Shown here: one piece after another, positions 6,872-21,334 of the stretch | How positions within the stretch are numbered: position 1 is the stretch's first letter | Layout: each line of letters begins with the position of its first letter | NCBI GenBank assembly: GCA_037446405.1 | Contig: JBBIIQ010000002.1 | Coordinates: 1 to 29,803, forward strand | Reading direction: 5' to 3' | DNA from: Armatimonadota bacterium | Lineage (GTDB): Bacteria; Sysuimicrobiota; Sysuimicrobiia; Sysuimicrobiales; Humicultoraceae | DNA: 29,803 nt | Made by a program: the position numbers and the translations under genes | The notes under the pieces: model-generated | Seen by the model: the letters and a program-made list of their open reading frames with translations, nothing else | Database searches by the model: none | What the model was told of the DNA's origin: nothing

Positions 6872-7270
6872 TCATGTCGCCTGCCCCTCCCCTGCCAGCG
6901 CGATCACGTCGACCTCCACCAGCGCTCCGCGCGGCAGGCGGCTGACCGCTACCGTGGTCCGCGCCGGCGGCTCCTCCTGGAAGAACGCCCCGTACTCCTC
7001 GTTCATCGGCCCGAAGTCGCTCATCTCCGCCAGGAAGACGGTGCACTTGACCACGCGCTGCAGCGACGACCCTGCCGCCTCCAGAATGGCCCGCACGTTC
7101 TCCAGGGCCTGGCGTGTCTGCTGCTTGATGTCCGTCCCCACCAGCTGGCCGGTCTGGGGGTCCAGGGCAATCTGGCCCGAGAGGAAAAGCAGTCCCCCCG
7201 CCCGCACCGCCTGCGCGTACGGCCCGATGGCCCGCGGCGCCCGGTCTGTGCTGACGATCGCTCGCTGCAT
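6872..7270 (-). CDS. ridA: RidA family reactive intermediate/imine deaminase
   Basis: APRAIGPYAQA, SGQIALDP, VVKCTVFL, PPARTTVAV(SR)LP, VEVDVIA. ATG 7270 is 8 nt after GGAGG. Confidence 0.93.
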   Translation of the reverse strand: MQRAIVSTDRAPRAIGPYAQAVRAGGLLFLSGQIALDPQTGQLVGTDIKQQTRQALENVRAILEAAGSSLQRVVKCTVFLAEMSDFGPMNEEYGAFFQEEPPARTTVAVSRLPRGALVEVDVIALAGEGQAT

Positions 7271-7332
7271 ACCCACAGCCTCCCCGTGTGACGTGGAGCA
7301 GGAGCCGGCGCAGGCCGTCTCCCGCCGCGTCG

Positions 7333-7428: not shown

Positions 7429-7662
7429 CTACAGGGTCTGCAGCATGGCCCGCAGGCGGCGGCGCAACGCCTCGGGGGCGGGCTGTCCTGCGCACCGCTG
7501 CCGGATGACCTCCCGCAGCCGCAGCTCGAACTCGTGGTGCGGCCCGCAGTCGCGGCACAGCCGCAGGTGCTCCTGCAGGCGGCGGGAGGTCTCGGGGTCC
7601 AGCTCCCGATCCATGTACTGCCAGAGCAGGCGCACGACCTCCTCGCAGTGGACCGCGCTCAT
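7429..7662 (-). CDS. zinc-binding anti-sigma factor, RsrA/RshA-like (zf-HC2)
   Basis: HCEEVVRLLWQYMDREL...HLRLCRDC (HxxxCxxC ZAS motif). ATG 7662 has a strong SD and overlaps the sigma stop (ATGA). Confidence 0.9.
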   Translation of the reverse strand: MSAVHCEEVVRLLWQYMDRELDPETSRRLQEHLRLCRDCGPHHEFELRLREVIRQRCAGQPAPEALRRRLRAMLQTL

Positions 7663-8264
7663 GGTTCCCTCCCCTTCTCGTCCGGGGTGACGTGACCTGT
7701 GCGCAGGGCGTATTCCCACAGCGCCTGCTGCAGCAGCCGCCGCCCGCGGAAGAGGCGGGACATCACCGTGCCCAGGGGGACCTCCAGGATGTGGGCAATC
7801 TCCTTGTAGGTGAAGCCCTCCAGGTCCGCCAGGATGACCGCGGCGCGGAAGGCCTCCGGCAGCGAGGCCAGGGCCGCCTCCACGTCGGCGTCCATGACCG
7901 CCTGCAGGACGACCTCTTCCGGGTTCCCCTGGCGGCGCAGCGCCTCGCTGGCTAGGACGCGGCTGTAGAGGTACTGCTCCTCCACGTCCTCCTGGTCCAC
8001 CACCTCCGGCTCCCGGTCCGCCCTACGGTAGGCGTCGATGTACGCGTTCATCAGGATGCGGTACAGCCAGGCGCGGGCGTTGCTGCCTGGCTGGAAGGTG
8101 TGAAAGGAGCGCCAGGCCTTGAGGAAGGTCTCCTGCACCAGGTCTTCCGCGGCGTCCCGGTTGCGGGTCAGGCGCAGGGCCGCGCCGTAGAGGCGGTCGA
8201 GGTGCTCCTCCGCCAGCGCCGCAAACTCCCGGGCGGCCGGGGTCTCCGGCGAAGGCTGGTTCAC
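7659..8264 (-). CDS. ECF sigma factor, SigH/SigR-like (start uncertain: GTG 8264, GTG 8300 or ATG 8333, all in frame)
   Basis: LYGAALRLTRNRDAAEDLVQETFLKAWRSFHTFQPGSNARAWLYRILMN (region 2) and DLEGFTYKEIAHILEVPLGTVMSRLFRGRR (region 4.2); paired with a ZAS anti-sigma. The track's 7659-8729 ORF is over-extended. Confidence 0.92.
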   Translation of the reverse strand: MNQPSPETPAAREFAALAEEHLDRLYGAALRLTRNRDAAEDLVQETFLKAWRSFHTFQPGSNARAWLYRILMNAYIDAYRRADREPEVVDQEDVEEQYLYSRVLASEALRRQGNPEEVVLQAVMDADVEAALASLPEAFRAAVILADLEGFTYKEIAHILEVPLGTVMSRLFRGRRLLQQALWEYALRTGHVTPDEKGREP

Positions 8265-8309
8265 GACCGGTGGACGGGACTCCCCCAGCGACGTCCCCAC
8301 GTCCCGCTC

Positions 8310-8336
8310 AACGTGCGGCTGCCGGGAAAGCATTCC
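8310..8336 (-). promoter_or_regulatory. SigH/SigR-type autoregulatory promoter GGAAT-N19-GTT
   Basis: GGAAT at 8336-8332, 19-nt spacer, (C)GTTG at 8313-8309, directly upstream of the ECF gene. Fits the known GGAAY-N18/19-GTT consensus of this ECF group. Confidence 0.7.
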
Positions 8337-8572: not shown

Positions 8573-9034
8573 CTACTCTCCGCTGGGGGCGTGCCCGTAG
8601 ATCATGTCGTGCAGGGTGAGGCGCTCCAGCACCCCTTCCGCCGCGGCTTTCATGGCCATCCAGATAGGGCGGATGCCGCATCCCGGGAGGTAGGCGCAGT
8701 TGGGATCCTCCACCCCCACGCACCACCACGGCGCCGCCCCTTCCTCCAGGACCTCGAAGGCTTCCCGCAGGGTGATCTCGGCGGGAGGGCGGGAGAGGGT
8801 GTGCCCCCCGGCGGGCCCGCGCTTGCTGGCCACCAGCCCGGCCCGGCGCAGCGAGGCCATGATCTGGTTGAGGTACGACTCGGGCAGTCCCTGGCGGGCG
8901 GCGATCTCGTGGCTCTGCACGTAGCCCTCGCCGTAGTGGCGGGCCAGATCCACCAGCGCGCGCAGGCCGTACTCCGCGCGGCTGCTCACCTTCACCGCGC
9001 GCGCGCCGTGGTCGACCCGGGTACGCACCCTCAC
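8573..9034 (-). CDS. Rrf2 family transcriptional regulator with three C-terminal Cys (possible Fe-S)
   Basis: VSSRAEYGLRALVDLA, YLNQIMASLRRAGLVASKRGPAGGHTLSRPPAEITL; C-x7-C-x5-C. GTG 9034 overlaps the mec stop (GTGA); alternative start GTG 8995. Confidence 0.92.
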   Translation of the reverse strand: MRVRTRVDHGARAVKVSSRAEYGLRALVDLARHYGEGYVQSHEIAARQGLPESYLNQIMASLRRAGLVASKRGPAGGHTLSRPPAEITLREAFEVLEEGAAPWWCVGVEDPNCAYLPGCGIRPIWMAMKAAAEGVLERLTLHDMIYGHAPSGE

Positions 9035-9432
9035 TGCACGATCACGTCCTCTTCGCTCACACGGCCATCGACAATGCGAAAGCCCCGCACCTGTGGCCGC
9101 TCAGCCCGTTGCAGCGATATTATCACATAGACCGCCTCCGGGTAGAATGCCCTGGCCACGTCCGTGCGCGAGGGCGTGGCCTCGGAGGCGGTGTGTGAGT
9201 GGTAGATGCCCACGACCTCCAGCCCCTCCCGGTCCATCTCCCGCAGGAACTGCAACAGCTGCCGGTCGTCCAGCCGGTAGGTGTAGGGGCTCTGATCCAC
9301 GTTGTCCCCGCGGTACACGCGGAGGACCTGCCCATCCCGCCCGGCCAGCAGCCCGCAGCACTCCAGGGGAAAGGTCTCCCGGGCGTGGGCGATCATCTCC
9401 TCCAGGTGCTCCCGCGTCAGACGCAGCGCCAT
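9031..9432 (-). CDS. mec: Mec/Mov34 JAMM (M67) metalloprotease, CysO-cysteine peptidase-like
   Basis: PLECCGLLAG and YHSHTASEATPSRTD (E...HxH-x7-S-x2-D JAMM motif); next to cysM. Confidence 0.88.
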   Translation of the reverse strand: MALRLTREHLEEMIAHARETFPLECCGLLAGRDGQVLRVYRGDNVDQSPYTYRLDDRQLLQFLREMDREGLEVVGIYHSHTASEATPSRTDVARAFYPEAVYVIISLQRAERPQVRGFRIVDGRVSEEDVIVQ

Positions 9433-10362
9433 CTACCCGAACACCCTGGTGGAGAGGTAGCGGCCGCCGCCGTCGGGGAGGACGACCACGATCACGCCCT
9501 CGCCGACCTCGCGGGCCACCTGCAGCGCCGCCAGCATCGCCGCGCCGGCCGAGGGGCCGACCAGCCAGCCCTCCTCCCGGGCCAGACGGCGGGTCATGGC
9601 GTAGGCCGCCTCGGTGCCCACGGCGATCACCCGGTGGTGCACGCTGGGGTCGTAGATGCCCGGGACGATGGAGGTGGCCATGTGCTTCAACCCCTCCAGC
9701 CCGTGCAGCGGGCCGTCGGGCTCCACGGCGATGATCTGCACCTGCGGCCGCTGCTCGCGCAGCCGCCGCCCCACCCCCACCAGCGTGCCGGAGGTGCCCA
9801 GGCCGGCGACGAAGTGGGTGAGGCGGCCGTCGCTCTGGGCGATGATCTCCGCCCCCGTGGTGTCGTAGTGGGCGCGCCAGTTGGCCGGGTTGTTGTACTG
9901 GTCCAGCAGGACGTAGCGCTGCGGTGCCGCGGCAAACACCTGCCGCGCCAGACGGATGGCCCCGTCGGACCCCTCCAGCGGGTCGGAGGGGATGACGGTG
10001 GCGCCGAAGGCCTGGATGATCCGCCGCCGCTCCACGCTCACGTTCTGCGGGACGACCAGCTCCACCTGGTACCCTTTGGCCGCGCCGATCATGGCGTAGG
10101 CGATGCCCGCGTTCCCCGAGGAGGCATCCAGCAGGACCTTCCCCGGGGTGAGCCGGCCCTCGCGTTCCGCCTCCTCGATCATCCGCAGCACGGGGCGGTC
10201 CTTCACCGACCCTCCCGGGTTGAACCACTCGGCCTTGGCCAGGATCTCCACCCCGGGGGGAACGCCGGCCAGGCGCGTCACCCGCAGCAGCGGCGTGCGG
10301 CCGATGCACCCCAGGAGGTGGCTGCCGAGGCGGTGGGCGGGTGAGGCCGGGCGGGAGGACAC
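9433..10362 (-). CDS. cysM: PLP-dependent cysteine synthase, CysM-type (candidate O-phosphoserine sulfhydrylase)
   Basis: IGRTPLL, NPGGSVKDR (PLP Lys), SSGNAG, QYNNPAN, GLGTSGT, GPSAGA, PDGGGRYLS. Its stop abuts the mec ATG. Confidence 0.85.
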   Translation of the reverse strand: MSSRPASPAHRLGSHLLGCIGRTPLLRVTRLAGVPPGVEILAKAEWFNPGGSVKDRPVLRMIEEAEREGRLTPGKVLLDASSGNAGIAYAMIGAAKGYQVELVVPQNVSVERRRIIQAFGATVIPSDPLEGSDGAIRLARQVFAAAPQRYVLLDQYNNPANWRAHYDTTGAEIIAQSDGRLTHFVAGLGTSGTLVGVGRRLREQRPQVQIIAVEPDGPLHGLEGLKHMATSIVPGIYDPSVHHRVIAVGTEAAYAMTRRLAREEGWLVGPSAGAAMLAALQVAREVGEGVIVVVLPDGGGRYLSTRVFG

Positions 10363-10375
10363 GGCCGCGCGTGCC

Positions 10376-11215
10376 TCAGTCGTCGAAGAGGACGGTGGGC
10401 TCCGGGTAGAGACGTACCCGGTGGGCCAGCAGGCGCGCGTGGACCAGGTCGTGCAGGGCGGCGTTCTTCTCCTCCACCGTGCCGGGGGCGCGCAGCAGCT
10501 CCAGCGGCAGGTTCACCCGCAGCGCCCGGTTGGGGATGACGTGGCGCGTGATGCCGGTGGGCAGCTTCTGCGGGAGGACGGCCAGGCGCAGGATCTGCGC
10601 CTTGGTGAACCGGGGGAAGACCACCAGCACGCCAATCCGGTCGTACTCGGCGCGCAGGAGGCGGCGGTCCGTGGTGAGGACGCGATAGATGGGGACCCGC
10701 CCGTTGTAGGCGTCCACCACGGCGCGCATGGCGCCCACGCGCGCGGAGAAAGACCGCCCCGCCCGCACGCCCAGCACGCCCTGCTCCCAGACCAGGCCGC
10801 AGGCCAGACGGCCGTCGCGCAGCGCGCCGGCCAGCCGGGCGGCGCTGTCCAGAGGGACCAGCGGCAGCCGCGGCAGCAGGCGGGCCAGCGCGGGGCCGTC
10901 CTCCCGCAGCAGGTGGTGCCACACCTCCAGGCGGACCCCCGCCGCGGCGTAGTCCACGACCTGGAGGAGGTGGTGCGGCACGCCCAGGCGCTGCAGGGCG
11001 CTGGTGCGGTTCGCCCCGTCCAGGACCACGTAGCCGCCGCCGGGCAACTCCGCCGCCACCGGCGGGTTGCGCAGCACCTCCTCGCTCTGCAGCTGCTCCA
11101 CCAGGGCGGCGACGCGCCGCGGGTCGGCGTCCTCATGCAGGTGGACCTGCGCCGCCGGGACGATGCGCAGGGTGGGGAGGGGCTGAGCGGAGGGGAGGCG
11201 GGCGGGAGGCGTCAC
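10376..11215 (-). CDS. ParB-fold protein, SbnI/SerK-like free L-serine kinase (candidate)
   Basis: C-terminal part of the track's 10376-12619 ORF; true start GTG 11215 overlaps the CBS stop (GTGA), 279 aa. LHEDADPRR, LRNPP, YVVLDGANR, VWHH, VVDAYNG, LPTGITRHVIPNRALRVNLPLELL, RLYPEPTVLF parallel the SbnI segments as I recall them. Confidence 0.8.
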   Translation of the reverse strand: MTPPARLPSAQPLPTLRIVPAAQVHLHEDADPRRVAALVEQLQSEEVLRNPPVAAELPGGGYVVLDGANRTSALQRLGVPHHLLQVVDYAAAGVRLEVWHHLLREDGPALARLLPRLPLVPLDSAARLAGALRDGRLACGLVWEQGVLGVRAGRSFSARVGAMRAVVDAYNGRVPIYRVLTTDRRLLRAEYDRIGVLVVFPRFTKAQILRLAVLPQKLPTGITRHVIPNRALRVNLPLELLRAPGTVEEKNAALHDLVHARLLAHRVRLYPEPTVLFDD

Positions 11216-12612
11216 GGGCGGCCGAGGACCCTGGCCAGGTGGTCGATGACGTCGATCTTGGTGACGATGCCGACGACACGCCCGCTGTCCACGACGATGG
11301 CCGCGTTGGCGCTGAGGAAGATCTCCGCCAGGTCGCCCACCGGCGTCTCCGGCGTGACCACGGGGGCGCTGGGGTTGACCAGGAGGGTGATGGGGTCGTC
11401 GAGGCCGTGTCCCCCCTCCAGCAGGTAGGAGAGCAGATCCACCTCGCTGACCATGCCCACCAGGCCGCCGTCGGCCACCACGGGCAGCTGGGAGACGTCG
11501 TACTGCTTCATCTTGGCGATCACCGCGCGCACCTGCTCGTCCGGCGTCGCGGTGATCAGCGGCAGGCCCTTGGCCCGCAGCAGGTCGGCCACGGTGCCCA
11601 TCTCCGCTTCCAGGTAGCCGTTCTCCCGCATCCAGTCGTCGTCGAAGAGTTTGGAGAGGTAGCGAAACCCGGAGTCGGGGAGGATGACCACGACCCGCTT
11701 CCCCTCCCCGTGGTCCGGCAGGCCGCGCAGGTACCGCAGGGCCCCGGCCACGGCGCTGCCGCTGCTGCCGCCGCAGAACAGCCCCTCCTCCCGCACCAGG
11801 CGGCGGGCCATGAGGAAGGACTCCCGGTCGGTCACCGGCACCACCTCGTCCACGACGCGGAAGTCCATGGTCCCGGGGAGGAAGTCCTCGCCGATCCCCT
11901 CCACCTTGTAGGTGTGCGCCTCCCCCAGCCTGCCGCTGCGGAAGTACTCGCTGTAGACCGAGCCCACCGGGTCCACGCCCACCACCTTCACCTGGGGGTT
12001 GCGCTCCTTGAGGAAGCGTCCCACCCCGGAGATGGTCCCCCCGGTGCCCATGCCGCAGACGAAGATGTCCACGCGGCCGCCGCTGTCCTCCCAGATCTCC
12101 GGTCCGGTGGTCTCGTAGTGGGCGGCGGGGTTGTGCGGGTTGTGGTACTGGTCTGCGTACCAGGCCTGGGCGGTCTCCTCCGCCAGCCGCCGGCTGACGC
12201 TGTAGTAGGAGCGCGGGTCCTCGGGGGCCACCGCCGTGGGCGTGATCACCACCCTGGCGCCGAAGGCGCGCAGCAGGCGGATCTTCTCCTCCGACATCTT
12301 GTCCGGCATGACGAAGATGCAGCGGTAGCCGCGCACGGCCGCCACCAGGGCCAGGCCCATCCCGGTGTTGCCCGAGGTGGCCTCGACGATGGTCCCCCCC
12401 GGCCGCAGCTCCCCCTGCGCCTCCGCCGCGGCCACCATGCGCACGCCGATGCGGTCCTTCACCGAGCCTCCGGGGTTGAGAAACTCCAGCTTGGCCACCA
12501 CGTCCGCGCGCACGCCCCGCGTCACCCGGTGCAGGCGCACCAGGGGGGTGTGCCCCACCACGTCCAGGATGCTGTCGTGGATGCGCTCGCCGGCGCGCGT
12601 CTGGACCTTCAC
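11212..12612 (-). CDS. cbs: cystathionine beta-synthase with C-terminal CBS domain pair
   Basis: KLEFLNPGGSVKDRIG, EATSGNTG, GMGTGGT, YKVEGIGEDF, GGSSGS, PDSGFRYLSK, then CBS repeats (YDVSQLPVV, VGIVTKIDVI). Start GTG 12612 is 7 nt after GGAGG and overlaps the upstream stop. Confidence 0.9.
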   Translation of the reverse strand: MKVQTRAGERIHDSILDVVGHTPLVRLHRVTRGVRADVVAKLEFLNPGGSVKDRIGVRMVAAAEAQGELRPGGTIVEATSGNTGMGLALVAAVRGYRCIFVMPDKMSEEKIRLLRAFGARVVITPTAVAPEDPRSYYSVSRRLAEETAQAWYADQYHNPHNPAAHYETTGPEIWEDSGGRVDIFVCGMGTGGTISGVGRFLKERNPQVKVVGVDPVGSVYSEYFRSGRLGEAHTYKVEGIGEDFLPGTMDFRVVDEVVPVTDRESFLMARRLVREEGLFCGGSSGSAVAGALRYLRGLPDHGEGKRVVVILPDSGFRYLSKLFDDDWMRENGYLEAEMGTVADLLRAKGLPLITATPDEQVRAVIAKMKQYDVSQLPVVADGGLVGMVSEVDLLSYLLEGGHGLDDPITLLVNPSAPVVTPETPVGDLAEIFLSANAAIVVDSGRVVGIVTKIDVIDHLARVLGRP

Positions 12613-12902
12613 CCGCCACCCTCCCCCGCCGTCCCCCCGGCCATGGCCGGAATGATGGACACCTCGTCCTGCGGCCCCACCGGGGTCTCCTCCCCGCGCA
12701 GGGTGCGCATCTCGTCGCCGTTGACGAAGACGTTGATGTAGGCGCGCACGTGCCCCTGCTCGTCCAGCACCTGCGCTCCCACCCCCGGGTAGGCCGCGCG
12801 CAGGTTCGCCAGCACCTCCCGCACCGTGCTCCCCGGCACCTGCACGCGGCTCTGCCCGCCGGTCTGGCGCCGCAGCGGCGCGGGAACGTAGACGGTTGCC
12901 AC
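12609..12902 (-). CDS. MoaD/ThiS/CysO-family ubiquitin-like sulfur carrier with a C-terminal extension after GG
   Basis: VYVPAPLRRQTGG...YINVFVNGDEMR...DEVSIIPAMAGG followed by TAGEGGG. GTG 12902 is 8 nt after AGGAGG. Confidence 0.88.
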   Translation of the reverse strand: MATVYVPAPLRRQTGGQSRVQVPGSTVREVLANLRAAYPGVGAQVLDEQGHVRAYINVFVNGDEMRTLRGEETPVGPQDEVSIIPAMAGGTAGEGGG

Positions 12903-12921
12903 GGTCATCACCTCCTGCCCA

Positions 12922-12952
12922 CCCCACGAATGCGTTCCGCGAATTCGTGGGG
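12922..12952. other. perfect 10-bp inverted repeat (hairpin or operator) between CGL and the sulfur carrier gene
   Basis: CCCCACGAAT (12922-12931) / ATTCGTGGGG (12943-12952). Confidence 0.6.
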
Positions 12953-12976
12953 ACCCCGGAACTTATCCACCGCTTC

Positions 12977-14119
12977 TCATGGCTGCAGCGCCTGCTCCAG
13001 GTCCGCGATCAGGTCGTCGGGGTGCTCCAGCCCCACCGAGAGGCGCAGCAGCCCCTCCTCCACCGCCAGGGGCGTTCCCGCCACGCTGGCGTGGGTCATC
13101 GACGCCGGGTGGTCGATCAGCGACTCCACCCCGCCCAGGCTCTCCGCCAGGAGGAAGAGCTTCGTCCGCGCCGCCACCCGCCGCGCCGCCGCGCCGCCGC
13201 CGTGGACGACAAAGGAGACCATCCCGCCGAAGCAGCGCATCTGCCGCGCGGCCAGCTCGTGGCCGGGATGGTCCGCCAGCCCCGGGTAGAGGACCCTGCT
13301 GACCCGCGGAGCCTGCCGCAGGAACGTCGCCACCCGGACGGCGTTCTGGGCGTGGCGCTCCATGCGTACCGCCAGGGTGCGCAGCCCGCGCAGGACCAGC
13401 CAGCAGTCCAGCGGGCCGGGGACGGCGCCGACCGCATTCTGCAGGAACTTCAGCCGCTCGTACAGGTCGGCGCGGGAGGTGAGCACCGCCCCGCCCACCA
13501 CGTCGCTGTGGCCCCCCAGGTACTTCGTCGTGGAGTGGACCACCAGGTCGGCGCCCAGGCGCAGCGGCTGCTGCCCGTAAGGGGTGGCGAAGGTGTTGTC
13601 CACGGCCACCAGCGCCCCGGCGGCGTGGCCCACGTCGGCCAGGCGGGCGATGTCCAGGATCCTCAGGTAGGGGTTGGTGGGCGTCTCCAGGAAGAGCAGC
13701 CGCGTGCGCTCGCGCATCGCCCGCTCCACCGCCGGCACCTCGCGCATGTCCACGAAGGTGGCCTCGATACCGTAGCGCTGCAGGACGCGGACGAAGAGGC
13801 GGTGCGTGCCGCCGTAGACGTCGTCCGGGGCCACCACGTGGTCACCGGGGGAGAGCAGCAGGGCCACCGCGGTGATAGCCGCCATCCCCGAGGCGAAGGC
13901 CAGCCCGTACTCCGCCTCCTCCAGGGAGGCCAGCGCCCGCTCCAGGGCGCTGCGCGTGGGGTTAGCGGTGCGGGAGTAGTCGTACCCGCGGTGCTCCCCC
14001 GGGGCCTGCTGCACGTAGGTGGAAGTCTGGTAGATGGGAGGGATCACCGCCCCGGTGGTGGGATCGGGCGCCTGGCCGTCGTGGATGGCCCGCGTCTCGA
14101 AGTGGTGGGAGGACGGCAT
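12977..14119 (-). CDS. cystathionine gamma-lyase/synthase (Cys/Met metabolism PLP enzyme)
   Basis: FETRAIHDGQ, PPIYQTSTY, YSRTANPT, FASGMAA, YGGT, ETPTNP, VDNTFATP, HSTTKYLGGHSDV, AESLGGVESL, LRLSVGLE. Confidence 0.93.
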   Translation of the reverse strand: MPSSHHFETRAIHDGQAPDPTTGAVIPPIYQTSTYVQQAPGEHRGYDYSRTANPTRSALERALASLEEAEYGLAFASGMAAITAVALLLSPGDHVVAPDDVYGGTHRLFVRVLQRYGIEATFVDMREVPAVERAMRERTRLLFLETPTNPYLRILDIARLADVGHAAGALVAVDNTFATPYGQQPLRLGADLVVHSTTKYLGGHSDVVGGAVLTSRADLYERLKFLQNAVGAVPGPLDCWLVLRGLRTLAVRMERHAQNAVRVATFLRQAPRVSRVLYPGLADHPGHELAARQMRCFGGMVSFVVHGGGAAARRVAARTKLFLLAESLGGVESLIDHPASMTHASVAGTPLAVEEGLLRLSVGLEHPDDLIADLEQALQP

Positions 14120-14826
14120 CAGGAGAGCACCGCCTCCGCGGCCAGCGCGGCCAGCCGCTCTTCCACCTGCGGCCGCGCCACCGGCAGCAGCTCCAGGGCG
14201 TACACCTCGGCGAAGCGCCGCGCGTAGGCGTCGGCCACCGCGGCAAAGGAGACCTCCCGGCCCAGCAGCCGCGCCATGGAGGTGACAGGGCGGTTCAGGC
14301 CGCAGGGATTGATCCAGGTGAAGGGCTCCAGGTCCGTGGTCACGTTCAGGGCCGCCCCGTGCATGGTCACCCTCCGCTTCACCGCCACGCCCACAGCGGC
14401 CAGCTTGGCCTCCCCCACCCAGACGCCAGGGAAACCGCGCACCCGGACGGCGCTGATCCCAAAGTCGGCGACGGTGCGGATCACCGACTCCTCCAGCGCC
14501 CGCATGAAGCGCACCACGTCCTCGTCCATGGCCCGCAGGTCGAGGATGGGATAGGCGACCAGCTGCCCAGGCCCGTGGTAGGTGGCGCCGCCGCCGCGCT
14601 CGATCTGGTAGATCTCGACGCCGCGCTGCCGCAGCACGTCGGGGGAGAGCAGCAGGTGCCCCCGATCCCCGGACCGCCCCAATGTGATCACAGGGTGATG
14701 CTGCAGCAGCAGGACCACGTCGGGAATCGCGGCCTGCTGGCGGGCGGCGACCAGCCGCCGCTGCAGCGTCCAGGCGTCGGCGAAGGGCGTCAGCCCCTCA
14801 AGGGTCACTAGCCACGCATCCCGCAT
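14119..14826 (-). CDS. lipB: lipoyl(octanoyl) transferase
   Basis: LLQHHPVITLGRS, ERGGGATYHGPGQLVAYPI, KLAAVGV, TMHGAALNV, INPCGL. Start moved to ATG 14826 (AGGAG 5 nt upstream); stop overlaps the CGL ATG (TGATG). Confidence 0.92.
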   Translation of the reverse strand: MRDAWLVTLEGLTPFADAWTLQRRLVAARQQAAIPDVVLLLQHHPVITLGRSGDRGHLLLSPDVLRQRGVEIYQIERGGGATYHGPGQLVAYPILDLRAMDEDVVRFMRALEESVIRTVADFGISAVRVRGFPGVWVGEAKLAAVGVAVKRRVTMHGAALNVTTDLEPFTWINPCGLNRPVTSMARLLGREVSFAAVADAYARRFAEVYALELLPVARPQVEERLAALAAEAVLS

Positions 14827-14850: not shown

Positions 14851-15026
14851 CCCGCGGCCGGGCGCGGCCGCGGGCGGGACCGACCTGCGCGGTCGGACGC
14901 TCACGGCAATGTCGTCTGGGCTGGTCGGGCTCAGGGAGCCCGACGGGAGGGCGAAGGCCGCTAGGCCTCCGCCCGGAGACAGATGCAGGAGCGAGGGCGC
15001 GGTGCCAGGGGGTGCGCAGTTCCTGG
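14851..15026 (-). promoter_or_regulatory. highly structured leader (five tandem hairpins) upstream of the lipB-cys operon
   Basis: Stems at 14851-14874 (10 bp), 14880-14896 (6 bp), 14924-14944 (9 bp), 14949-14974 (11 bp, one G-U on the minus strand) and 15005-15026 (5 bp). No known RNA family recognised. Confidence 0.4.
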
Positions 15027-15048
15027 ACGCACGGACATAGCAGCAGGC

Positions 15049-15057
15049 ATCATAGCA
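15049..15057 (-). promoter_or_regulatory. extended -10 promoter TGcTATGAT
   Basis: TGn-TATGAT just downstream of the ABC ATPase stop, pointing into the leader and operon. Confidence 0.55.
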
Positions 15058-15063
15058 TGGCAT

Positions 15064-16130
<1,067 letters not shown>

Positions 16131-16134
<4 letters not shown>

Positions 16135-17753
16135 CCCTCTCCCCTCCACCGTTCCTGCGCCAGCAGCAGCCACAGGGAGAGGGAGGAGAACGCCAGCAGC
16201 AGCAGCGCCGGGGCGGCGGCCCGGGCGAAGAACCCTTCGGTGGCGGTGGACCAGATGCGCGTGGCCAGCGTCTCAAAGCCCGTGGGGCCAAGCAGCAGCG
16301 TCGCCGGCAGCTCCTTCATCGTGGTGAGGAAGACCAGCGCCGTCGCCGCCACCACGCCCGGGCGGACCAGCGGTACGGTGACGGTGCGCAGGACCTGGAA
16401 GGGGCTGCGCCCCAGGGTCTGCGCCGCCTCCTCCTGTGAGGGGCTCACCTGCGCCAAGCCCGCGCGCAGCGGGCCCAGCGCCTGCGGCAGGAAGTGGACG
16501 GCGTAGGCGAAGACCAGCAGCCCCAGCGTCTGGTAGACGAACGGCAGGTAGCGTGCGGCGAAGAAGACGAGGGAGAGCGCCAGGACGATGCCGGGAAGGG
16601 CGAACCCGGCGTAGGTCAGGCGCGAGATCAGGGCGGCCAGCCGCCCCCCGTGGCGCACGGAGAGGATGGCCACGGGCAGCGCCGCCGCCACCGTCGCTCC
16701 CGCCGCCAGGACGGAGGCATACAGGGAGCGGACGGCGGGGCGCAGCGCGAGCGCCAGGGGCTCTCCCTGCCGTATCCCCACCGCCAGCCAGTAGACGATG
16801 ACCCCCAGGGGGACGAGCACGCCCAGCAGGGTCGCCAGCGCACACAGCGCCAGGGCCGGCCACCGCCAGCGGCCCAGCCGCCGCGGGCGGATGGCGCGGG
16901 ACGTCCCCCGCAGACGGTGGAACCGGCCCCGCCCCCGCCGCTCCTCCAGGAGCACGATCAGCGAGGCCAGGGCCACCAGCACCAGGGAGAGGACGGCCGC
17001 GTAGTGCCGGTTGAAGGACGCCTGATACTGCAGGTAGATGGCCGTGGTGAATGACTCGAACTGCATCATGGAGACGGCGCCGAAGTCGCTGAGCACGTAC
17101 AGCGCGACCAGCACGGCTCCCGCGCCCACCCACGGCCTCAGGTGGGGGACGGTGATGCGGCAAAAGGCGCGCCAGCCCCCGTCGCCCAGGGTCCGCGCCG
17201 CCTCCTCAAGGGCCGGGTCCATCCCGCGCAGCCCCGCGCGGGCGCTGAGCAGGACGTAGGGATAGGTCACCAGGGTGAGGGTGATCCAGGCGCCGGGGAA
17301 GCCGTAGAGGCCTCCCGGCCGGAAGGCGATCCCCAGGCGGTCGAGCAGGTAGTGCACCATCCCCGCCGGCCCGAAGACGGTGGCGACGATGATCCCGCTG
17401 ATGAAGGAGGGCACCACCAGCGGCAGGACGGTGAGCGTGCTCCACAGCCGCGCGCCCGGCAGGTCGGTGCGGGTGGTCAGCCAGGCCAGGGGCAGGGCGA
17501 CGGCCACCGCGCTGACGGTGACGGCTGCAGCCAGCAGCACGGTGTGCAGGAGGATGCGGAGCGTACGGGGGTGCACCAGCAGGCGCCAGATCCCCTCGTC
17601 CGCGCCGGCCGCCCGCACTCCCAGGTAGACCACAGGCAGCAGCAGCGCCCCTGCCACCAGCAGCGACGGCAGCAGGACCAGGAGACCGGGAGGCCGGCGG
17701 CGGGCCGGGCCGTCCCTGCGCAGCGCCAGGGTGGACGGCAGGGCCACGGCCAT
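16131..17753 (-). CDS. Fe(III) ABC transporter permease (FbpB-like, duplicated domain)
   Basis: Two permease repeats with EAA loops (LEEAARTLG, QEEAAQTLG), SDFGAV and MKELPATLLL motifs. Confidence 0.9.
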
Positions 17754-17759
17754 GGCCCG

Positions 17760-18782
17760 CTACAGGACGCCTGCCTCCCGCAGCAGGCGGAGGGTCTCCT
17801 CCAGAGCCTGCAGGTGGTTTAGGTCCACGCGCGGGGTGCTGATCTGCGCCAGCGGCCGCAGCAGGGGGTGGGCGGGGACGCCGGCGACCAGCGGGTACTC
17901 GAACGTCTCGGTGGCAAAGTAGCGCTGCGCCTCGGGGGAGAGCAGGTACTCCACCAGGCGCAGCGCCGCGGCACTGCGCGCGGTGTCCACGATCCCCACG
18001 CCGGCCACGTTGATCAGGTTGCCGGCGTCGGGCCCGGGGAAGTAGTAGTTGCGCACCGGGAAGCCCTCCCCCCGCTCCTGCAGGAAGCGGAAGAGGTAGT
18101 AGTGGTTGACAAACCCGACGTCGATCTCCCCTGCCCCCAGGGCGGCGACGATGGCGACGTTGTTGCGGTAGGCCCGCGGGGCGTTCGCCTTCATCCCCAG
18201 GAGCCACTCCCGCGTGCGCTCATTGCCCCAGAGGAGGCGCATGGCCGTGACGTGCGCCTGGAAGGAGCCGTTGGTCGGCGCCCAGCCCATGCGCCCCCGC
18301 CAGCGGGGGTCAGTGAAGTCGCGGATGGAGGCGGGGAGATCGCGGGGGGAGAGGCGGCGTGTGTTGTAGGCCACGACGCGGGCCCGGCCGCTCACCCCCA
18401 CCCACAGCCCCTCGCCGGAGCGAAAGCGGGGCTCCACCTTCTGCAGCAGCGCGGCCGGGAGGCGCTGCAGCCGGCCGGCGTACGCCAGCGCCCCCAGCGC
18501 GCCGGCGTCCTGGGCGAAGTAGACATCCGCCGGGCTGTTCGCCCCTTCTTCCATGATGGTCGCGGCGAGCTCGGCTGTCTCCCCGTAGCGGACACGCAGC
18601 CGGATCCCGCTGGCCTGGGCAAACCGCTCCAGCAGCGGCCCCACCAGCTCCTGGTTGCGTCCCGAATAGACCGTGACCGCAGCCGGCTGCGCGCCCAGGG
18701 GGGCGAAGGCCCCGAGGAACAGGAGGACGGCAATTAGGAGGAACGGGGATATGCGCGCGCACCGCAGGCAGGCACCGGTCAT
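17760..18782 (-). CDS. Fe(III) ABC transporter substrate-binding protein (FutA/FbpA-like)
   Basis: Signal peptide; VYSGR, EGANSPADV, VGVSGRARV, NHYY (tandem Tyr iron ligands), NVAGVGI, EYP. Confidence 0.88.
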   Translation of the reverse strand: MTGACLRCARISPFLLIAVLLFLGAFAPLGAQPAAVTVYSGRNQELVGPLLERFAQASGIRLRVRYGETAELAATIMEEGANSPADVYFAQDAGALGALAYAGRLQRLPAALLQKVEPRFRSGEGLWVGVSGRARVVAYNTRRLSPRDLPASIRDFTDPRWRGRMGWAPTNGSFQAHVTAMRLLWGNERTREWLLGMKANAPRAYRNNVAIVAALGAGEIDVGFVNHYYLFRFLQERGEGFPVRNYYFPGPDAGNLINVAGVGIVDTARSAAALRLVEYLLSPEAQRYFATETFEYPLVAGVPAHPLLRPLAQISTPRVDLNHLQALEETLRLLREAGVL

Positions 18783-18886: not shown

Positions 18887-18901
18887 CAACAATCGTTGTT
18901 G
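18887..18901. promoter_or_regulatory. 7-1-7 imperfect palindrome, candidate Fur/PerR-family operator
   Basis: CAACAAT-C-GTTGTTG in an AT-rich patch (18851-18901) between the divergent iron-ABC and fur-family genes. Confidence 0.45.
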
Positions 18902-18916
18902 GCGGCAGGCCGCGGC

Positions 18917-19345
18917 ATGGTCAGCGCCGCTGAGCTGCGCCAGCGCTTCCGGGCGGCGGGCCGGCGTATCACGCCGCAGCGCGACCTGATCTTCCGCCTG
19001 CTGGAGCAGACCCAGGCCGACCACCCGACCGCCGAGGCGCTCTACCTGCGGGCCGCGCGCCAGATGCCCTCCATCTCCCTGCGCACGGTCTACGCAGTGC
19101 TGGCCGAGCTGCAGGAGCTGGCCGCGGTGCGGCCGCTGGACCTGGGGACCGGCAGCACACGCTTCTGCACCAACGTCCGCAACCACCACCACCTGGTCTG
19201 CGAGCGCTGCGGCAGGGTGAAAGACGTCTTCGTGGAGCTGGCCCCGCTGGAGATCCCCGCGGCGCAGCGCGGGGGATTCCTGGTCAGGGAGCAGGCCGTG
19301 GTCTTCCGCGGCCTGTGCGCCGAATGCCGGGGCGGAGGTTCCTGA
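18917..19345 (+). CDS. Fur family transcriptional regulator (PerR/FurA-like)
   Basis: GRRITPQR, HPTAEALY, SISLRTVY, HHHLVCERCGRVKD, GLCAEC (two CxxC Zn motifs). ATG 18917 preferred to TTG 18896. Confidence 0.92.
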   Translation: MVSAAELRQRFRAAGRRITPQRDLIFRLLEQTQADHPTAEALYLRAARQMPSISLRTVYAVLAELQELAAVRPLDLGTGSTRFCTNVRNHHHLVCERCGRVKDVFVELAPLEIPAAQRGGFLVREQAVVFRGLCAECRGGGS

Positions 19346-19372: not shown

Positions 19373-19876
19373 CTATCCGCTCCTCCCTCGCACCGCCGCG
19401 TACCAGCGGCGCAGCAGGAAGATCTGGGCCGCGTGGTAGGAGTCGTGGGTGGCCAGATCGGCGACGACGTCCAGCTTCGTCCAGGGACCTGTCCCCCCGG
19501 GCCGGTAGGGCTCGGCCAGCGCTTCGGCCGGAAGGCGGCGGATTGTGGCGGCACAGGCCTCGTGTGCCCGCCCCAGGTCCTCCTGGACGTCGATCCAGGC
19601 CTCAGTGGTCGGTGCGACGGGGCGCCACTCCTCCTCCCCGGGGTCGACCACGGCTGCCGGATCGAGCCACCGCGCCACCTTCCAACACCAGTAGGCCATA
19701 TGCCAGGCGATCTCGGCGATGGTGTGCTGCGCGGGAACGGGCCGCCAGTGCGCCTCCTCCGGGGTGACGCCTTCCAGGGCCGGGCGGACGCCCTTTCCCG
19801 ACCAGTTCCCTTCCAGGTACGTCCCCTGCAGCCGCTGCGCCAGCCACGCGGGCAGGTCGATCCCGGCGGCGGTCAT
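19373..19876 (-). CDS. DinB family protein
   Basis: [13 protein letters not shown] and [12 protein letters not shown] His triad; ATGA overlap with the trpB2 stop. Confidence 0.8.
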
Positions 19877-21231
19877 GGCTGCAGCGCCGCCAGCTCGCGC
19901 GTCGCCGCGGCCACCGCCTCCGCGGGGTAGGCGTAGTCCTCCAGGCGGCCGCTCAGGTACTCCTCGTAGGCCTGCAGGTCGAAGTGACCATGCCCGCTGA
20001 GGTTGAAGAGGATGACGCGCGGGACCCCCAGCTCCCGCGCCTCCAGGGCCTCGTCGATGACCCGGCGCACGGCGTGCGCCGACTCAGGCGCGGGGACGAT
20101 CCCCTCGCTGCGGGCGAACTGCACCGCCGCCTCGAAGACCGCGCGCTGGCCGTAGGCGGCGGCCTCCACGTAGCCGGCGTCGTAGAGCAGGCACAGCGAT
20201 GGTGCGTCGCCGTGGTAGCGCAGGCCGCCGGCGTGGATCCCCGGTGGGACAAAGGTGTGCCCCAGGGTGTACATCTTGAACAGCGGGGTGGTGGCCGCGG
20301 TGTCGCCGAAGTCGTAGAGGTAGCGGCCGCGGGTGAGCGACGGACACGCCTCCGGCTCCACGGCCACGAAGCGGACGTCCCTGCCCCTGAACCGGTCCGC
20401 CAGGAACGGATAGGCCAGGCCCGCGTAGTTGCTCCCCCCGCCCACGCAGCCGATGACCACGTCGGGGTACTCCCCGGCCAGCTCCATCTGCCGCCTGGCC
20501 TCCAGCCCGATGACGGTCTGGTGCAGGAGGACGTGGTTGGCCACGCTGCCGATGGAGTACTTGGTGTCCTCGTGCGTGGCCGCGTCCTCCACCGCCTCGC
20601 TGATGGCGATCCCCAGGCTCCCCGGTGAGTGCGGGTCCCGCTCGCGGATCGTGCGCCCGGCGCGGGTCTGCTCACTGGGACTGGGCAGGACCTGCGCCCC
20701 CCAGGTCTCCATGATCACGCGGCGGTAGGGCTTCTGCTCGTAGGAGACGCGCACCATGTAGACGGTGCACTCCAGGCCGAAGAGGCGGCAGGCCAGGGCC
20801 AGCGCGCTGCCCCACTGGCCGGCACCGGTCTCCGTGGTCAGGCGACGCACCCCCGCCTCCCTGTTGTAGAAAGCCTGGGCCACCGCGGTGTTGGGCTTGT
20901 GGCTACCCGCGGGGCTCGTCCCCTCGTACTTGTAGTAGATGTGCGCCGGCGTCCCCAGGGCCCGCTCCAGGCGGTGGGCGCGGTAGAGCGGTGTGGGGCG
21001 CCACAGCCGGTAGATCTCGCGCACCGGCTCGGGGATCTCCACCTCCCGCTCGGTGGAGACCTCCTGCTGGATGATCTGCGGCGGGAAGAGCGGGGCCAGG
21101 TCATCCGGGCCGATGGGCTGCTTGGTGGCCGGATGGAGCACCGGGGGGAGCGGCAGCGGCAGGTCCGCCAGGATGTTGTACCAGGCCTGCGGCAGGTCGC
21201 GCTCGTCCAGCACAAACTTGGTCTGCGGCAT
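19873..21231 (-). CDS. trpB2: TrpB2 (TrpB-like PLP enzyme, tryptophan synthase beta type 2)
   Basis: [87 protein letters not shown] 21231 after GGAGG; no trpA in the window. Confidence 0.93.
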
Positions 21232-21334
21232 GTAGCCCTCACCTCCGGGCAGGGAATGCGGTGGATGTGACACCGGAAACGCCGGGTAGCGGTTCGGCTC
21301 CGTCTGGGGAAATCCCTGCGATCGGGTGGCCGGC

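Follow-up and report, generated by a model that had tools for sequence, protein, structure and literature searches.

A candidate free serine kinase in a conserved and probable cysteine operon of the CSP1-3 (Sysuimicrobiota) lineage

We analyzed a 29,803-nucleotide (nt) stretch of contig JBBIIQ010000002.1 (assembly GCA_037446405.1, Armatimonadota bacterium), hereafter the window. Eight minus-strand genes at 8573-14826 encode, in this order, LipB, a cystathionine gamma-lyase or gamma-synthase (CGL/CGS), a ThiS-type sulfur carrier, a cystathionine beta-synthase (CBS), an SbnI/SerK-like protein, CysM, a JAMM protease and an Rrf2 regulator, as assigned with Pfam and NCBIfam models. The region is probably a cysteine operon conserved in the CSP1-3 (Sysuimicrobiota) lineage, in which serine would be converted to O-phospho-L-serine (OPS), OPS would react with a carrier thiocarboxylate on CysM, and the JAMM protease would release the cysteine.

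In the proposed pathway, the 279-amino-acid (aa) SbnI/SerK-type enzyme would phosphorylate free L-serine to OPS, and the adjacent CysM would turn OPS into a pyridoxal phosphate (PLP)-aminoacrylate. The thiocarboxylated C-terminal glycine of the ThiS-type carrier, charged by a MoeZ-type ThiF-rhodanese encoded elsewhere, would then attack the aminoacrylate. The JAMM protease would act twice, first by trimming the tail that follows the GG of the carrier or by freeing the carrier from a fusion protein, and later by releasing cysteine from the carrier-cysteine adduct. A homocysteine-to-cysteine route would be added by CBS and CGL in the clusters that have them. The enzymatic activities, the phosphate donor, the preference of CysM for OPS and the dual role of the JAMM protease are all inferred from sequence. 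As a whole, the scheme suggests a way for bacteria to make cysteine in which phosphorylation, and not acetylation, activates the serine.

A predicted serine kinase in the window

The kinase candidate (10376-11215, minus strand) was concealed in the list of open reading frames (ORFs) within a spurious 747-aa frame. Its family comprises 1066 representatives at E <= 1e-3 in an exhaustive 50%-clustered library and about 1000 homologues in a 90%-clustered collection, almost all of them unnamed or labelled 'ParB N-terminal domain', and relatives are encoded in at least 555 species genomes. Among the matches listed, the nearest relatives came from 'Armatimonadetes bacterium CSP1-3' and named Sysuimicrobiota metagenome-assembled genomes (MAGs), and further ones from Chloroflexota, Latescibacterota, Dormiibacterota, Eisenbacteria and a few Proteobacteria.

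A family profile of 132 diverse members was searched against the PDB. It matched the SbnI proteins of Staphylococcus aureus and S. pseudintermedius with E values of 3.8e-39 to 1.6e-37 over profile positions 7-275 of 278, and Thermococcus SerK (8.6e-16) and its Pyrococcus homologue at about 1e-16, while ParB and sulfiredoxin were marginal (E > 0.03). An AlphaFold2 (AF2) model built from the family alignment had a pLDDT of 94.7 and a pTM of 0.91. The nine best Foldseek matches to this model in the PDB were all SbnI or SerK, covering about 245-266 columns with TM scores of 0.66-0.82, and matches beyond these spanned just the ParB/Srx core of about 80 residues. The protein consists of a ParB/Srx-fold N-domain followed by a family-specific C-domain.

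The residues that are invariant across the 132 members (H27, E28, P51, D66, G67, R70, G221, R230, R268 and Y270) sit in blocks common to SbnI and SerK, and the DGxxR and TRH motifs are both common to these proteins and invariant. H27-E28 of the window protein aligns with H29-E30 of SerK and H19-E20 of SbnI; E30 is the residue changed in the SerK E30A and E30Q structures. The original prediction, which had been made from the letters of the window, called this gene SbnI-like, and the full-length profile, the fold and the conserved catalytic motifs agree that it encodes a genuine SbnI/SerK-type protein. Judged by sequence and model, it belongs to the free-serine-kinase superfamily and has kept an intact active site, and kinase activity is predicted. 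By the same sequence comparisons it is a separate subfamily, orthologous to neither SbnI nor SerK, because as a single sequence it scores below both NCBIfam equivalog cut-offs.

Fusion proteins also occur in the family; the partner is most frequently a SerA-type D-2-hydroxyacid dehydrogenase, and in other members a ThiS domain or a JAMM domain (P0151). The dehydrogenase is N-terminal to the kinase domain in P0161, P0175, P0206, P0223, P0245, P0246 and P0253 (about 560-600 aa), which resembles the adjacency of serK and serA in Desulfurococcales (PMC5120207). The contigs that carry these SerA fusions are short, and in one of them (L117) a PALP enzyme lies just upstream. Open-frame length is uninformative for spotting kinase fusions in loci with a GC content like that of the window.

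Conservation of the cluster and its genomic context

The window proteins were searched against 84 fetched loci, including 43 nearer loci with at least 46% identity; the counts are limited to loci with enough flanking sequence. CysM was directly downstream of the kinase gene in 34 of 41 nearer loci. A true CBS was directly upstream in 23 of 37 nearer loci, often with overlapping stop and start codons, and in 6 of 34 distant loci. Within 5 kb of the kinase gene, the nearer loci held genes for JAMM (22/22), Rrf2 (22/22), LipB (21/22) and the sigma factor (20/22). The CGL/CGS gene was found just where CBS occurs too, and a RidA homologue, the usual last member of the neighborhood, comes after the anti-sigma gene in many of the related loci. 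The same gene order was found again in dozens of independent metagenome and MAG contigs, and the arrangement is far beyond chance. The combination of kinase, cysM, mec and moaD/thiS genes described for the window is conserved, and it is not unique to this assembly.

The cluster is near-universal in the CSP1-3 lineage and occurs in three nested forms. The full form is that of the window, including CBS and CGL. The mid form is without these two and reads lipB-ThiS-kinase-CysM-JAMM-Rrf2-sigma-anti-sigma-RidA (e.g. L003, L017 and L022), and the minimal form is without CysM and ThiS as well. The eight-gene core of the original prediction was therefore too large: CBS and CGL are optional, and the constant core is the kinase, JAMM and Rrf2 genes, usually with ThiS and CysM. 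Chloroflexota loci combine the kinase gene with ThiS, CysM and MoeZ-type genes in arrangements of their own (L056, L072, L076 and L080). Other Anaerolineae/Chloroflexota loci (L051, L073, L074 and L083) have a true CBS directly upstream of the kinase and no CysM nearby. In two of these, a FeS_assembly_P (SufT-like) gene comes after the CBS-kinase pair (L074, 9859-10209; L083, 9819-10202), another sulfur/Fe-S link.

The source genome is a 1.98-Mb draft that is about 77% complete. A genome-wide check for cysE, called for with the original prediction, found none above the model cut-off in this genome, and the gene was missing from 40 of 41 relatives; the single hit above the cut-off was on a small contig, and none of the 29 genomes with a completeness of 90% or more had one. 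The kinase family, on the other hand, was present in 40 of the 41 relatives, nearly always as a single copy. The parallel check for serC had a mixed outcome. Three models found no canonical SerC in any of the 41 relatives, which is weak evidence since the gene also escapes these models in several well-known control organisms. An AGXT/BhcA-like class-V aminotransferase and five short 2-hydroxyacid dehydrogenases are encoded in the source genome as well. The absence of SerC was considered as proof that the kinase is the sole source of OPS, but both the missed controls and the AGXT-type aminotransferase weaken this argument.

Carrier, protease and PLP enzymes

The ThiS/MoaD-family carrier is CysO-like (100 aa; 12609-12911, minus strand; PF02597, E 8e-13; SAMP1, 63.4 bits against a cut-off of 60) and ends in PAMAGG followed by a 7-residue tail. 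PAMAGG is kept in all related carriers, where a short variable tail of 2 to about 20 residues, or an in-frame fusion into the next gene, always comes after it. ThiS::CBS fusions were found in at least 11 full-form loci (L001, L011, L021, L032, L034, L036, L037, L039, L040, L041 and L046), and ThiS::kinase fusions were found in the mid-form loci L003 and L004. Judged by these sequences, the carrier is always made as a precursor that needs cleavage after GG, because PAMAGG is never terminal in any related locus. The fusions were also considered as a pointer to a specific enzymatic partner of the carrier; this was rejected since the partner is whichever gene comes downstream, CBS or kinase. The sequences of the fusions resemble ubiquitin-fusion precursors, which implies an obligatory cleavage after GG. 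Runs of heptamer-like direct repeats were seen upstream of ThiS in L001, L015 and L021 (GGTAGAC/GAAGACC types) and in L068 (CTACTGA types).

The enzyme that cuts the carrier after GG is presumably the JAMM/MPN metalloprotease (133 aa; 9031-9432, minus strand), which is Mec-, QbsD- or HcyD-like (PF14464 Prok-JAB, E 6e-28) and has an intact HxHx7Sx2D motif (HSHTASEATPSRTD). The MoeZ gene that was to be sought in the genome was found outside the window: a MoeZ-type ThiF-rhodanese is encoded at G000:C105:2991-4238, with 271 bits to ThiF and 413 bits, below the cut-off, to positions 12-383 of 392 of the MoeZ model. In L001, L015, L019, L037, L040, L042 and L078, a ThiF-rhodanese gene is 3-5 kb from the cluster, downstream in several. 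The module cannot be called self-contained, as it originally was, since MoeZ and the sulfur supply are encoded elsewhere.

CysM (309 aa; 9433-10362, minus strand) matched PF00291 (E 6e-71) and exceeded the cut-off of the TIGR01136 cysKM model by a narrow margin (344.6 bits against 344.15), and its score with TIGR01138 cysM was below the cut-off (363 bits against 394). CBS (466 aa; 11212-12612, minus strand) has a PALP domain and a CBS pair and scored 549.3 bits with TIGR01137 (cut-off 510). Its best solved relative is the M. tuberculosis CBS, Rv1077, which it matched over its full length (E 7e-123). Rv1077 and eukaryotic CBS use L-serine directly. The Cys/Met-metabolism PLP enzyme (380 aa; 12977-14119, minus strand; PF01053, E 3e-149) matched best the NCBIfam model PRK07811, named gamma-synthase (573.6 bits, cut-off 513), and its best solved relatives are 8sf4 (CGL/CGS) and 3qhx, so that by sequence it appears to be a CGL or CGS of the mycobacterial MetB/Rv1079 type. 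CBS and CGL look like an ordinary reverse-transsulfuration pair joined to the operon. Another interpretation, that the carrier and CBS are a MetO/MetM pair, was rejected since MetM is ThrC-like (PMC12172450) and the window enzyme is a true CBS; threonine-synthase models scored at most about 56 bits with the window CBS and CysM.

Besides CysM and CBS, the PALP enzymes of the genome are a D-cysteine-desulfhydrase-type protein, TrpB and a TrpB2-like protein that is encoded in the window; no further CysK-type enzyme was found in the genome. The TrpB2-like PLP enzyme (19873-21273, minus strand; PRK12391, 744 bits, above the cut-off) is encoded about 9 kb from the kinase gene. Work by Busch et al. 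from 2014 is said to have found that TrpB2 enzymes favor O-phosphoserine over serine. By analogy, the TrpB2 of the window could be another consumer of OPS made by the kinase.

Operon layout and regulation

The window has a G+C content of about 72%, and raw ORF lists are therefore crowded with spurious frames; the real genes were chosen by third-position GC. All eight co-oriented genes of the original prediction proved real, on the minus strand and with the span that had been claimed. The two at the ends encode a lipoyl(octanoyl) transferase (lipB, 235 aa; 14119-14826; PF21948, E 6e-50; NCBIfam LipB PRK14345, 180.9 bits against a cut-off of 155) and an Rrf2-family regulator (153 aa; 8573-9034; PF02082, E 2e-35). 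Translational chaining of the genes held in part. All five junction strings that had been quoted are exact: lipB and CGL overlap by 1 nt (TGATG), GTGA overlaps join carrier to CBS, CBS to kinase and JAMM to Rrf2, and the TAG stop of CysM abuts the ATG of JAMM with no gap (TAGATG). The operon is nevertheless three coupled blocks and not one unbroken chain, because gaps of 65 nt (CGL-carrier) and 13 nt (kinase-CysM) interrupt the overlaps. As had been stated, no cysE, serA/serC or moeZ is encoded in the window.

The Rrf2 gene is followed by a 272-nt gap and then by sigma, anti-sigma and RidA-family genes, all on the minus strand. The predicted thiol-stress pair is present: a SigH/SigR-like ECF sigma factor (about 7659-8300, start codon uncertain) with Sigma70_r2 and r4_2 domains, which scored 194.8 bits with TIGR02947 SigH_actino (cut-off 251), and an ATGA-coupled ZAS anti-sigma factor of the RsrA/RshA type (7429-7662; PF13490; TIGR03988, 67.2 bits against a cut-off of 62.5) with the motif HLRLCRDC. 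The RidA/YjgF-family protein (134 aa; 6872-7276) was identified from its ORF and translation, and its homologue was called as PF01042 in L003 and L004. A SigH/SigR-type promoter motif, GGAATG-N17-CGTT, is located upstream of the sigma gene at 8310-8336 (minus strand). It is the sole strict match on either strand of the window, and 32 of 35 related loci have the same motif in front of their sigma gene. No such motif precedes lipB or the carrier gene in the strict scan of the window. We considered a SigH promoter in front of the operon and rejected it since the motif belongs to the sigma gene itself, and SigH control of the operon was not borne out. From these sequences, the sigma/anti-sigma unit has its own conserved promoter and is probably autoregulated. 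The occurrence of the motif outside Actinomycetota suggests that an autoregulated thiol-stress sigma circuit is ancestral in CSP1-3 too.

A likely local regulator of the operon is the cysteine-rich Rrf2 protein. It has the arrangement C105-x7-C113-x5-C119, and Cx7Cx5C, which we take to be the cysteine pattern of cluster-binding Rrf2 sensors, is kept in 38 of 39 relatives. An identity as CymR, a cluster-free cysteine regulator, was rejected since the CymR model gave 85.6 bits against a cut-off of 195 and since Cx7Cx5C is conserved. An Rrf2 operator in the 65-nt gap was rejected as well: relatives do not conserve the inverted repeat in this gap, and further copies of it lie at other places in the genome.

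Alternative explanations

Several observations weigh against the proposed pathway. As a single sequence, the kinase candidate had no Pfam match, and its NCBIfam scores, both N-terminal, were far below the cut-off (SbnI, 60.9 bits against 350; SerK, 39.1 bits). The pathway is weakest at the substrate preference of CysM: judged by sequence, this enzyme is slightly closer to the E. coli CysM, a user of O-acetylserine, than to that of M. tuberculosis (237 and 215 bits, respectively, against the PDB). The minimal form of the cluster, lipB-kinase-JAMM-Rrf2-... (L012-14, L018 and L035), is without CysM and ThiS, and CysM was not found in two genomes with this form, which carry a second locus, CGL-ThiS-CBS-kinase (L108, G043:C141; L109, G042:C293). 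Sulfur genes are missing from the surroundings of about two thirds of the distant kinase loci. Of five Chloroflexota genomes with a rearranged cluster, three do encode CysE; there, by analogy with M. tuberculosis, which has both, the kinase-linked route would coexist with an O-acetylserine route. In the source genome, the class-V aminotransferase and the dehydrogenases could form an alternative OPS route, and the SerA fusions point to a tie between the kinase family and general serine/phosphoserine metabolism. Finally, the transcription units are read from gene overlaps, and the sequence occurs in DNA metagenome runs, with no RNA run among those listed. As a separate observation, the kinase copy of L108 and L109 is split or divergent and may be decaying.

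One possible extension of the proposed pathway is that OPS feeds CysM and also CBS, which would make cystathionine from OPS and homocysteine, such that one activation step serves both routes, as the original prediction held. We regard this as plausible but tentative. CBS is directly upstream of the kinase in two phyla (23/37 nearer and 6/34 distant loci), including the Anaerolineae loci without CysM nearby, and two genomes combine the CGL-ThiS-CBS-kinase locus with the lack of CysM. The window CBS is, however, a full-length relative of Rv1077 and eukaryotic CBS, which are L-serine users, and many loci have the cluster without CBS and CGL, which means that the kinase can do without CBS; the adjacency could also reflect a mere common use of serine. 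CBS enzymes that use O-acetylserine are known (Devi 2019, via PMC8225704), and the lineage has no CysE to make O-acetylserine, but no report of an OPS-dependent CBS was found in the literature searched. A wider version, in which the kinase is the sole source of activated serine in CSP1-3 and some Chloroflexota, OPS feeds CysM, an OPS-accepting CBS and possibly TrpB2, and the carrier precursor or polyprotein is cut by JAMM, is likewise tentative.

Another possible explanation is that the kinase mainly serves general serine/phosphoserine metabolism, either in catabolism to 3-phosphoglycerate or by a reverse reaction that replaces phosphoserine phosphatase, and that its adjacency to cysteine genes comes from the common use of serine. 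This would account for the many family members fused to SerA-type D-2-hydroxyacid dehydrogenases and for the lack of sulfur neighbors in the majority of distant homologues. Archaeal serK is found beside serA and aminotransferase genes and also takes part in serine assimilation (PMC5120207), and a distantly similar fold, DUF1015 'SerBK', has been proposed in GapMind 2026 to replace SerB (PMC13759103). We consider it unlikely for the window, since in nearly all CSP1-3 genomes the gene is fixed between CBS or ThiS and CysM and is translationally coupled, no canonical SerC that could take OPS onward was found in the 41 relatives, and the window protein has neither a SerA fusion nor a SerA-like neighbor. 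It is far less probable that the protein is chiefly a regulator or nucleotide-binding switch, comparable to the DNA-binding, heme-sensing SbnI of S. aureus, that controls the operon and supplies no metabolite. NCBIfam does name SbnI a bifunctional transcriptional regulator/OPS synthase, the ParB-CTPase fold is a widespread NTP switch, and CTP, not ATP, was the nucleotide bound by one archaeal SerK-like protein (PMC12704722). However, all 132 members keep the catalytic Glu and the other active-site motifs unchanged, Pfam detected no helix-turn-helix (HTH) domain, the operon already encodes an Rrf2 regulator, and the fusions to enzymes (SerA-type and JAMM) fit a metabolic role.

Comparison with known systems

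The proposed route, from serine through OPS to carrier-bound cysteine, joins parts that are known from separate organisms. In Thermococcus, OPS made by SerK supplies cysteine synthesis (PMC5120207), and M. tuberculosis CysM uses OPS and the CysO thiocarboxylate (PMC9547175; O'Leary 2008, via PMC3141025). Like the Mec-CysO-CysM system of M. tuberculosis, the window encodes a GG carrier, a CysM-type enzyme and a JAMM protease, and a MoeZ-type ThiF-rhodanese is encoded at another place in the genome. Also shared are a SigH/RshA-like pair tied to thiol stress, an Rv1077-like CBS and an Rv1079-like CGL/CGS. Unlike M. tuberculosis, the operon of the window holds a dedicated gene for a predicted free serine kinase, CBS and CGL, and an Rrf2 regulator, and no SigH-type promoter was found before it. 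Its carrier has a tail or is fused, so that, in contrast to CysO, it would need proteolytic maturation. The lineage also has no parallel CysE/CysK route and belongs to CSP1-3, not Actinomycetota.

With SerK of Thermococcus kodakarensis, the window protein shares a two-domain ParB fold and the HE catalytic motif, and in both cases serine would be phosphorylated and not acetylated, with OPS passing to a cysteine synthase (predicted here). The T. kodakarensis route, in contrast, uses sulfide and a CysK-type enzyme with no carrier, JAMM or MoeZ, and SerK is ADP-dependent. The two proteins are also remote, with a profile E value of about 1e-16 and about 18% identity in the structural alignment. SbnI of S. 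aureus is the closest characterized relative by profile and fold, with the same catalytic motifs, and its OPS goes to the PALP-family enzyme SbnA. SbnI serves the synthesis of the siderophore staphyloferrin B and heme-responsive regulation, whereas the window protein is encoded in a probable cysteine operon without sbn genes.

The MetM/MetO system of Streptomyces follows a like logic, in which a kinase makes an O-phospho-amino acid and the pathway relies on a carrier thiocarboxylate, a PLP enzyme, Mec and MoeZ (Hasebe 2024, via PMC13759103). It differs in that O-phosphohomoserine comes from an ordinary homoserine kinase, MetM is ThrC-like (PMC12172450) and the product is homocysteine, one carbon longer; the enzymes of the window are CysM and a true CBS. 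Carrier maturation has parallels of its own. QbsE and HcyS are known as carrier precursors that are trimmed by the JAMM proteases QbsD and HcyD, respectively. The MoaX carrier of M. tuberculosis is released by cleavage after GG (PMC4326299). Unlike QbsE, HcyS and MoaX, carriers of the window lineage have tails that vary from 2 to about 20 residues or are fused to whichever gene comes next, CBS or kinase.

Makino et al. found no clear SerK homologues in bacteria (PMC5120207), a 2025 survey of the ParB-CTPase fold names just SerK and SbnI as kinases (PMC12704722), and the family treated by GapMind 2026 is another one, DUF1015 (PMC13759103). Neither a serine kinase nor such an operon is mentioned in two papers on the CSP1-3 phylum. 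No paper joining a serine kinase with CysO/CysM/Mec or a thiocarboxylate was found in a search that left out most subscription journals, in line with the original statement that the combination was not known to be described. If confirmed, this would be the first bacterial free serine kinase dedicated to cysteine synthesis, and it would unite archaeal SerK with mycobacterial CysO/CysM/Mec, so far known separately. It would also explain cysteine synthesis without serine acetyltransferase in an uncultured phylum that is widespread in soil, the subsurface and hot springs, and more than 1000 proteins that now go by 'hypothetical' or 'ParB N-terminal domain' would gain a function. A new rule would be needed in pathway-annotation tools, since such genomes now look like cysteine auxotrophs, and this would bear on the design of cultivation media. 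The in-frame carrier-enzyme fusions would then be a clear bacterial analogue of ubiquitin-fusion precursors.

Additional features of the window

A short Cys-rich ORF at 14851-15057 was considered as a leader peptide, a possible attenuator, upstream of lipB. It was rejected since most relatives have no comparable ORF and there was no Rfam match. Known riboswitches or leaders were likewise rejected: between 6500 and 15400, Rfam matched one tRNA and nothing else. Directly upstream of lipB and on the same strand, an Fe3+-type ABC transporter (ATPase, permease and binding protein) is encoded at 15064-18782, with a divergent Fur-family gene beside it at 18896-19345. L003 shows the same adjacency of ABC transporter and lipB genes.

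The inverted repeat in the 65-nt gap between CGL and the carrier is a REP-like intergenic hairpin of 13-nt arms that are 92% complementary around a 5-nt spacer. This 31-nt palindrome, CCCCACGAATTCG...CGAATTCGTGGGG at 12922-12952, has a near-identical copy at G000:C19:10237-10266, and both are located in gaps of about 64 nt between co-oriented genes. Looser copies were found on C49, C114 and C137, forming a small family of REP-like hairpins.

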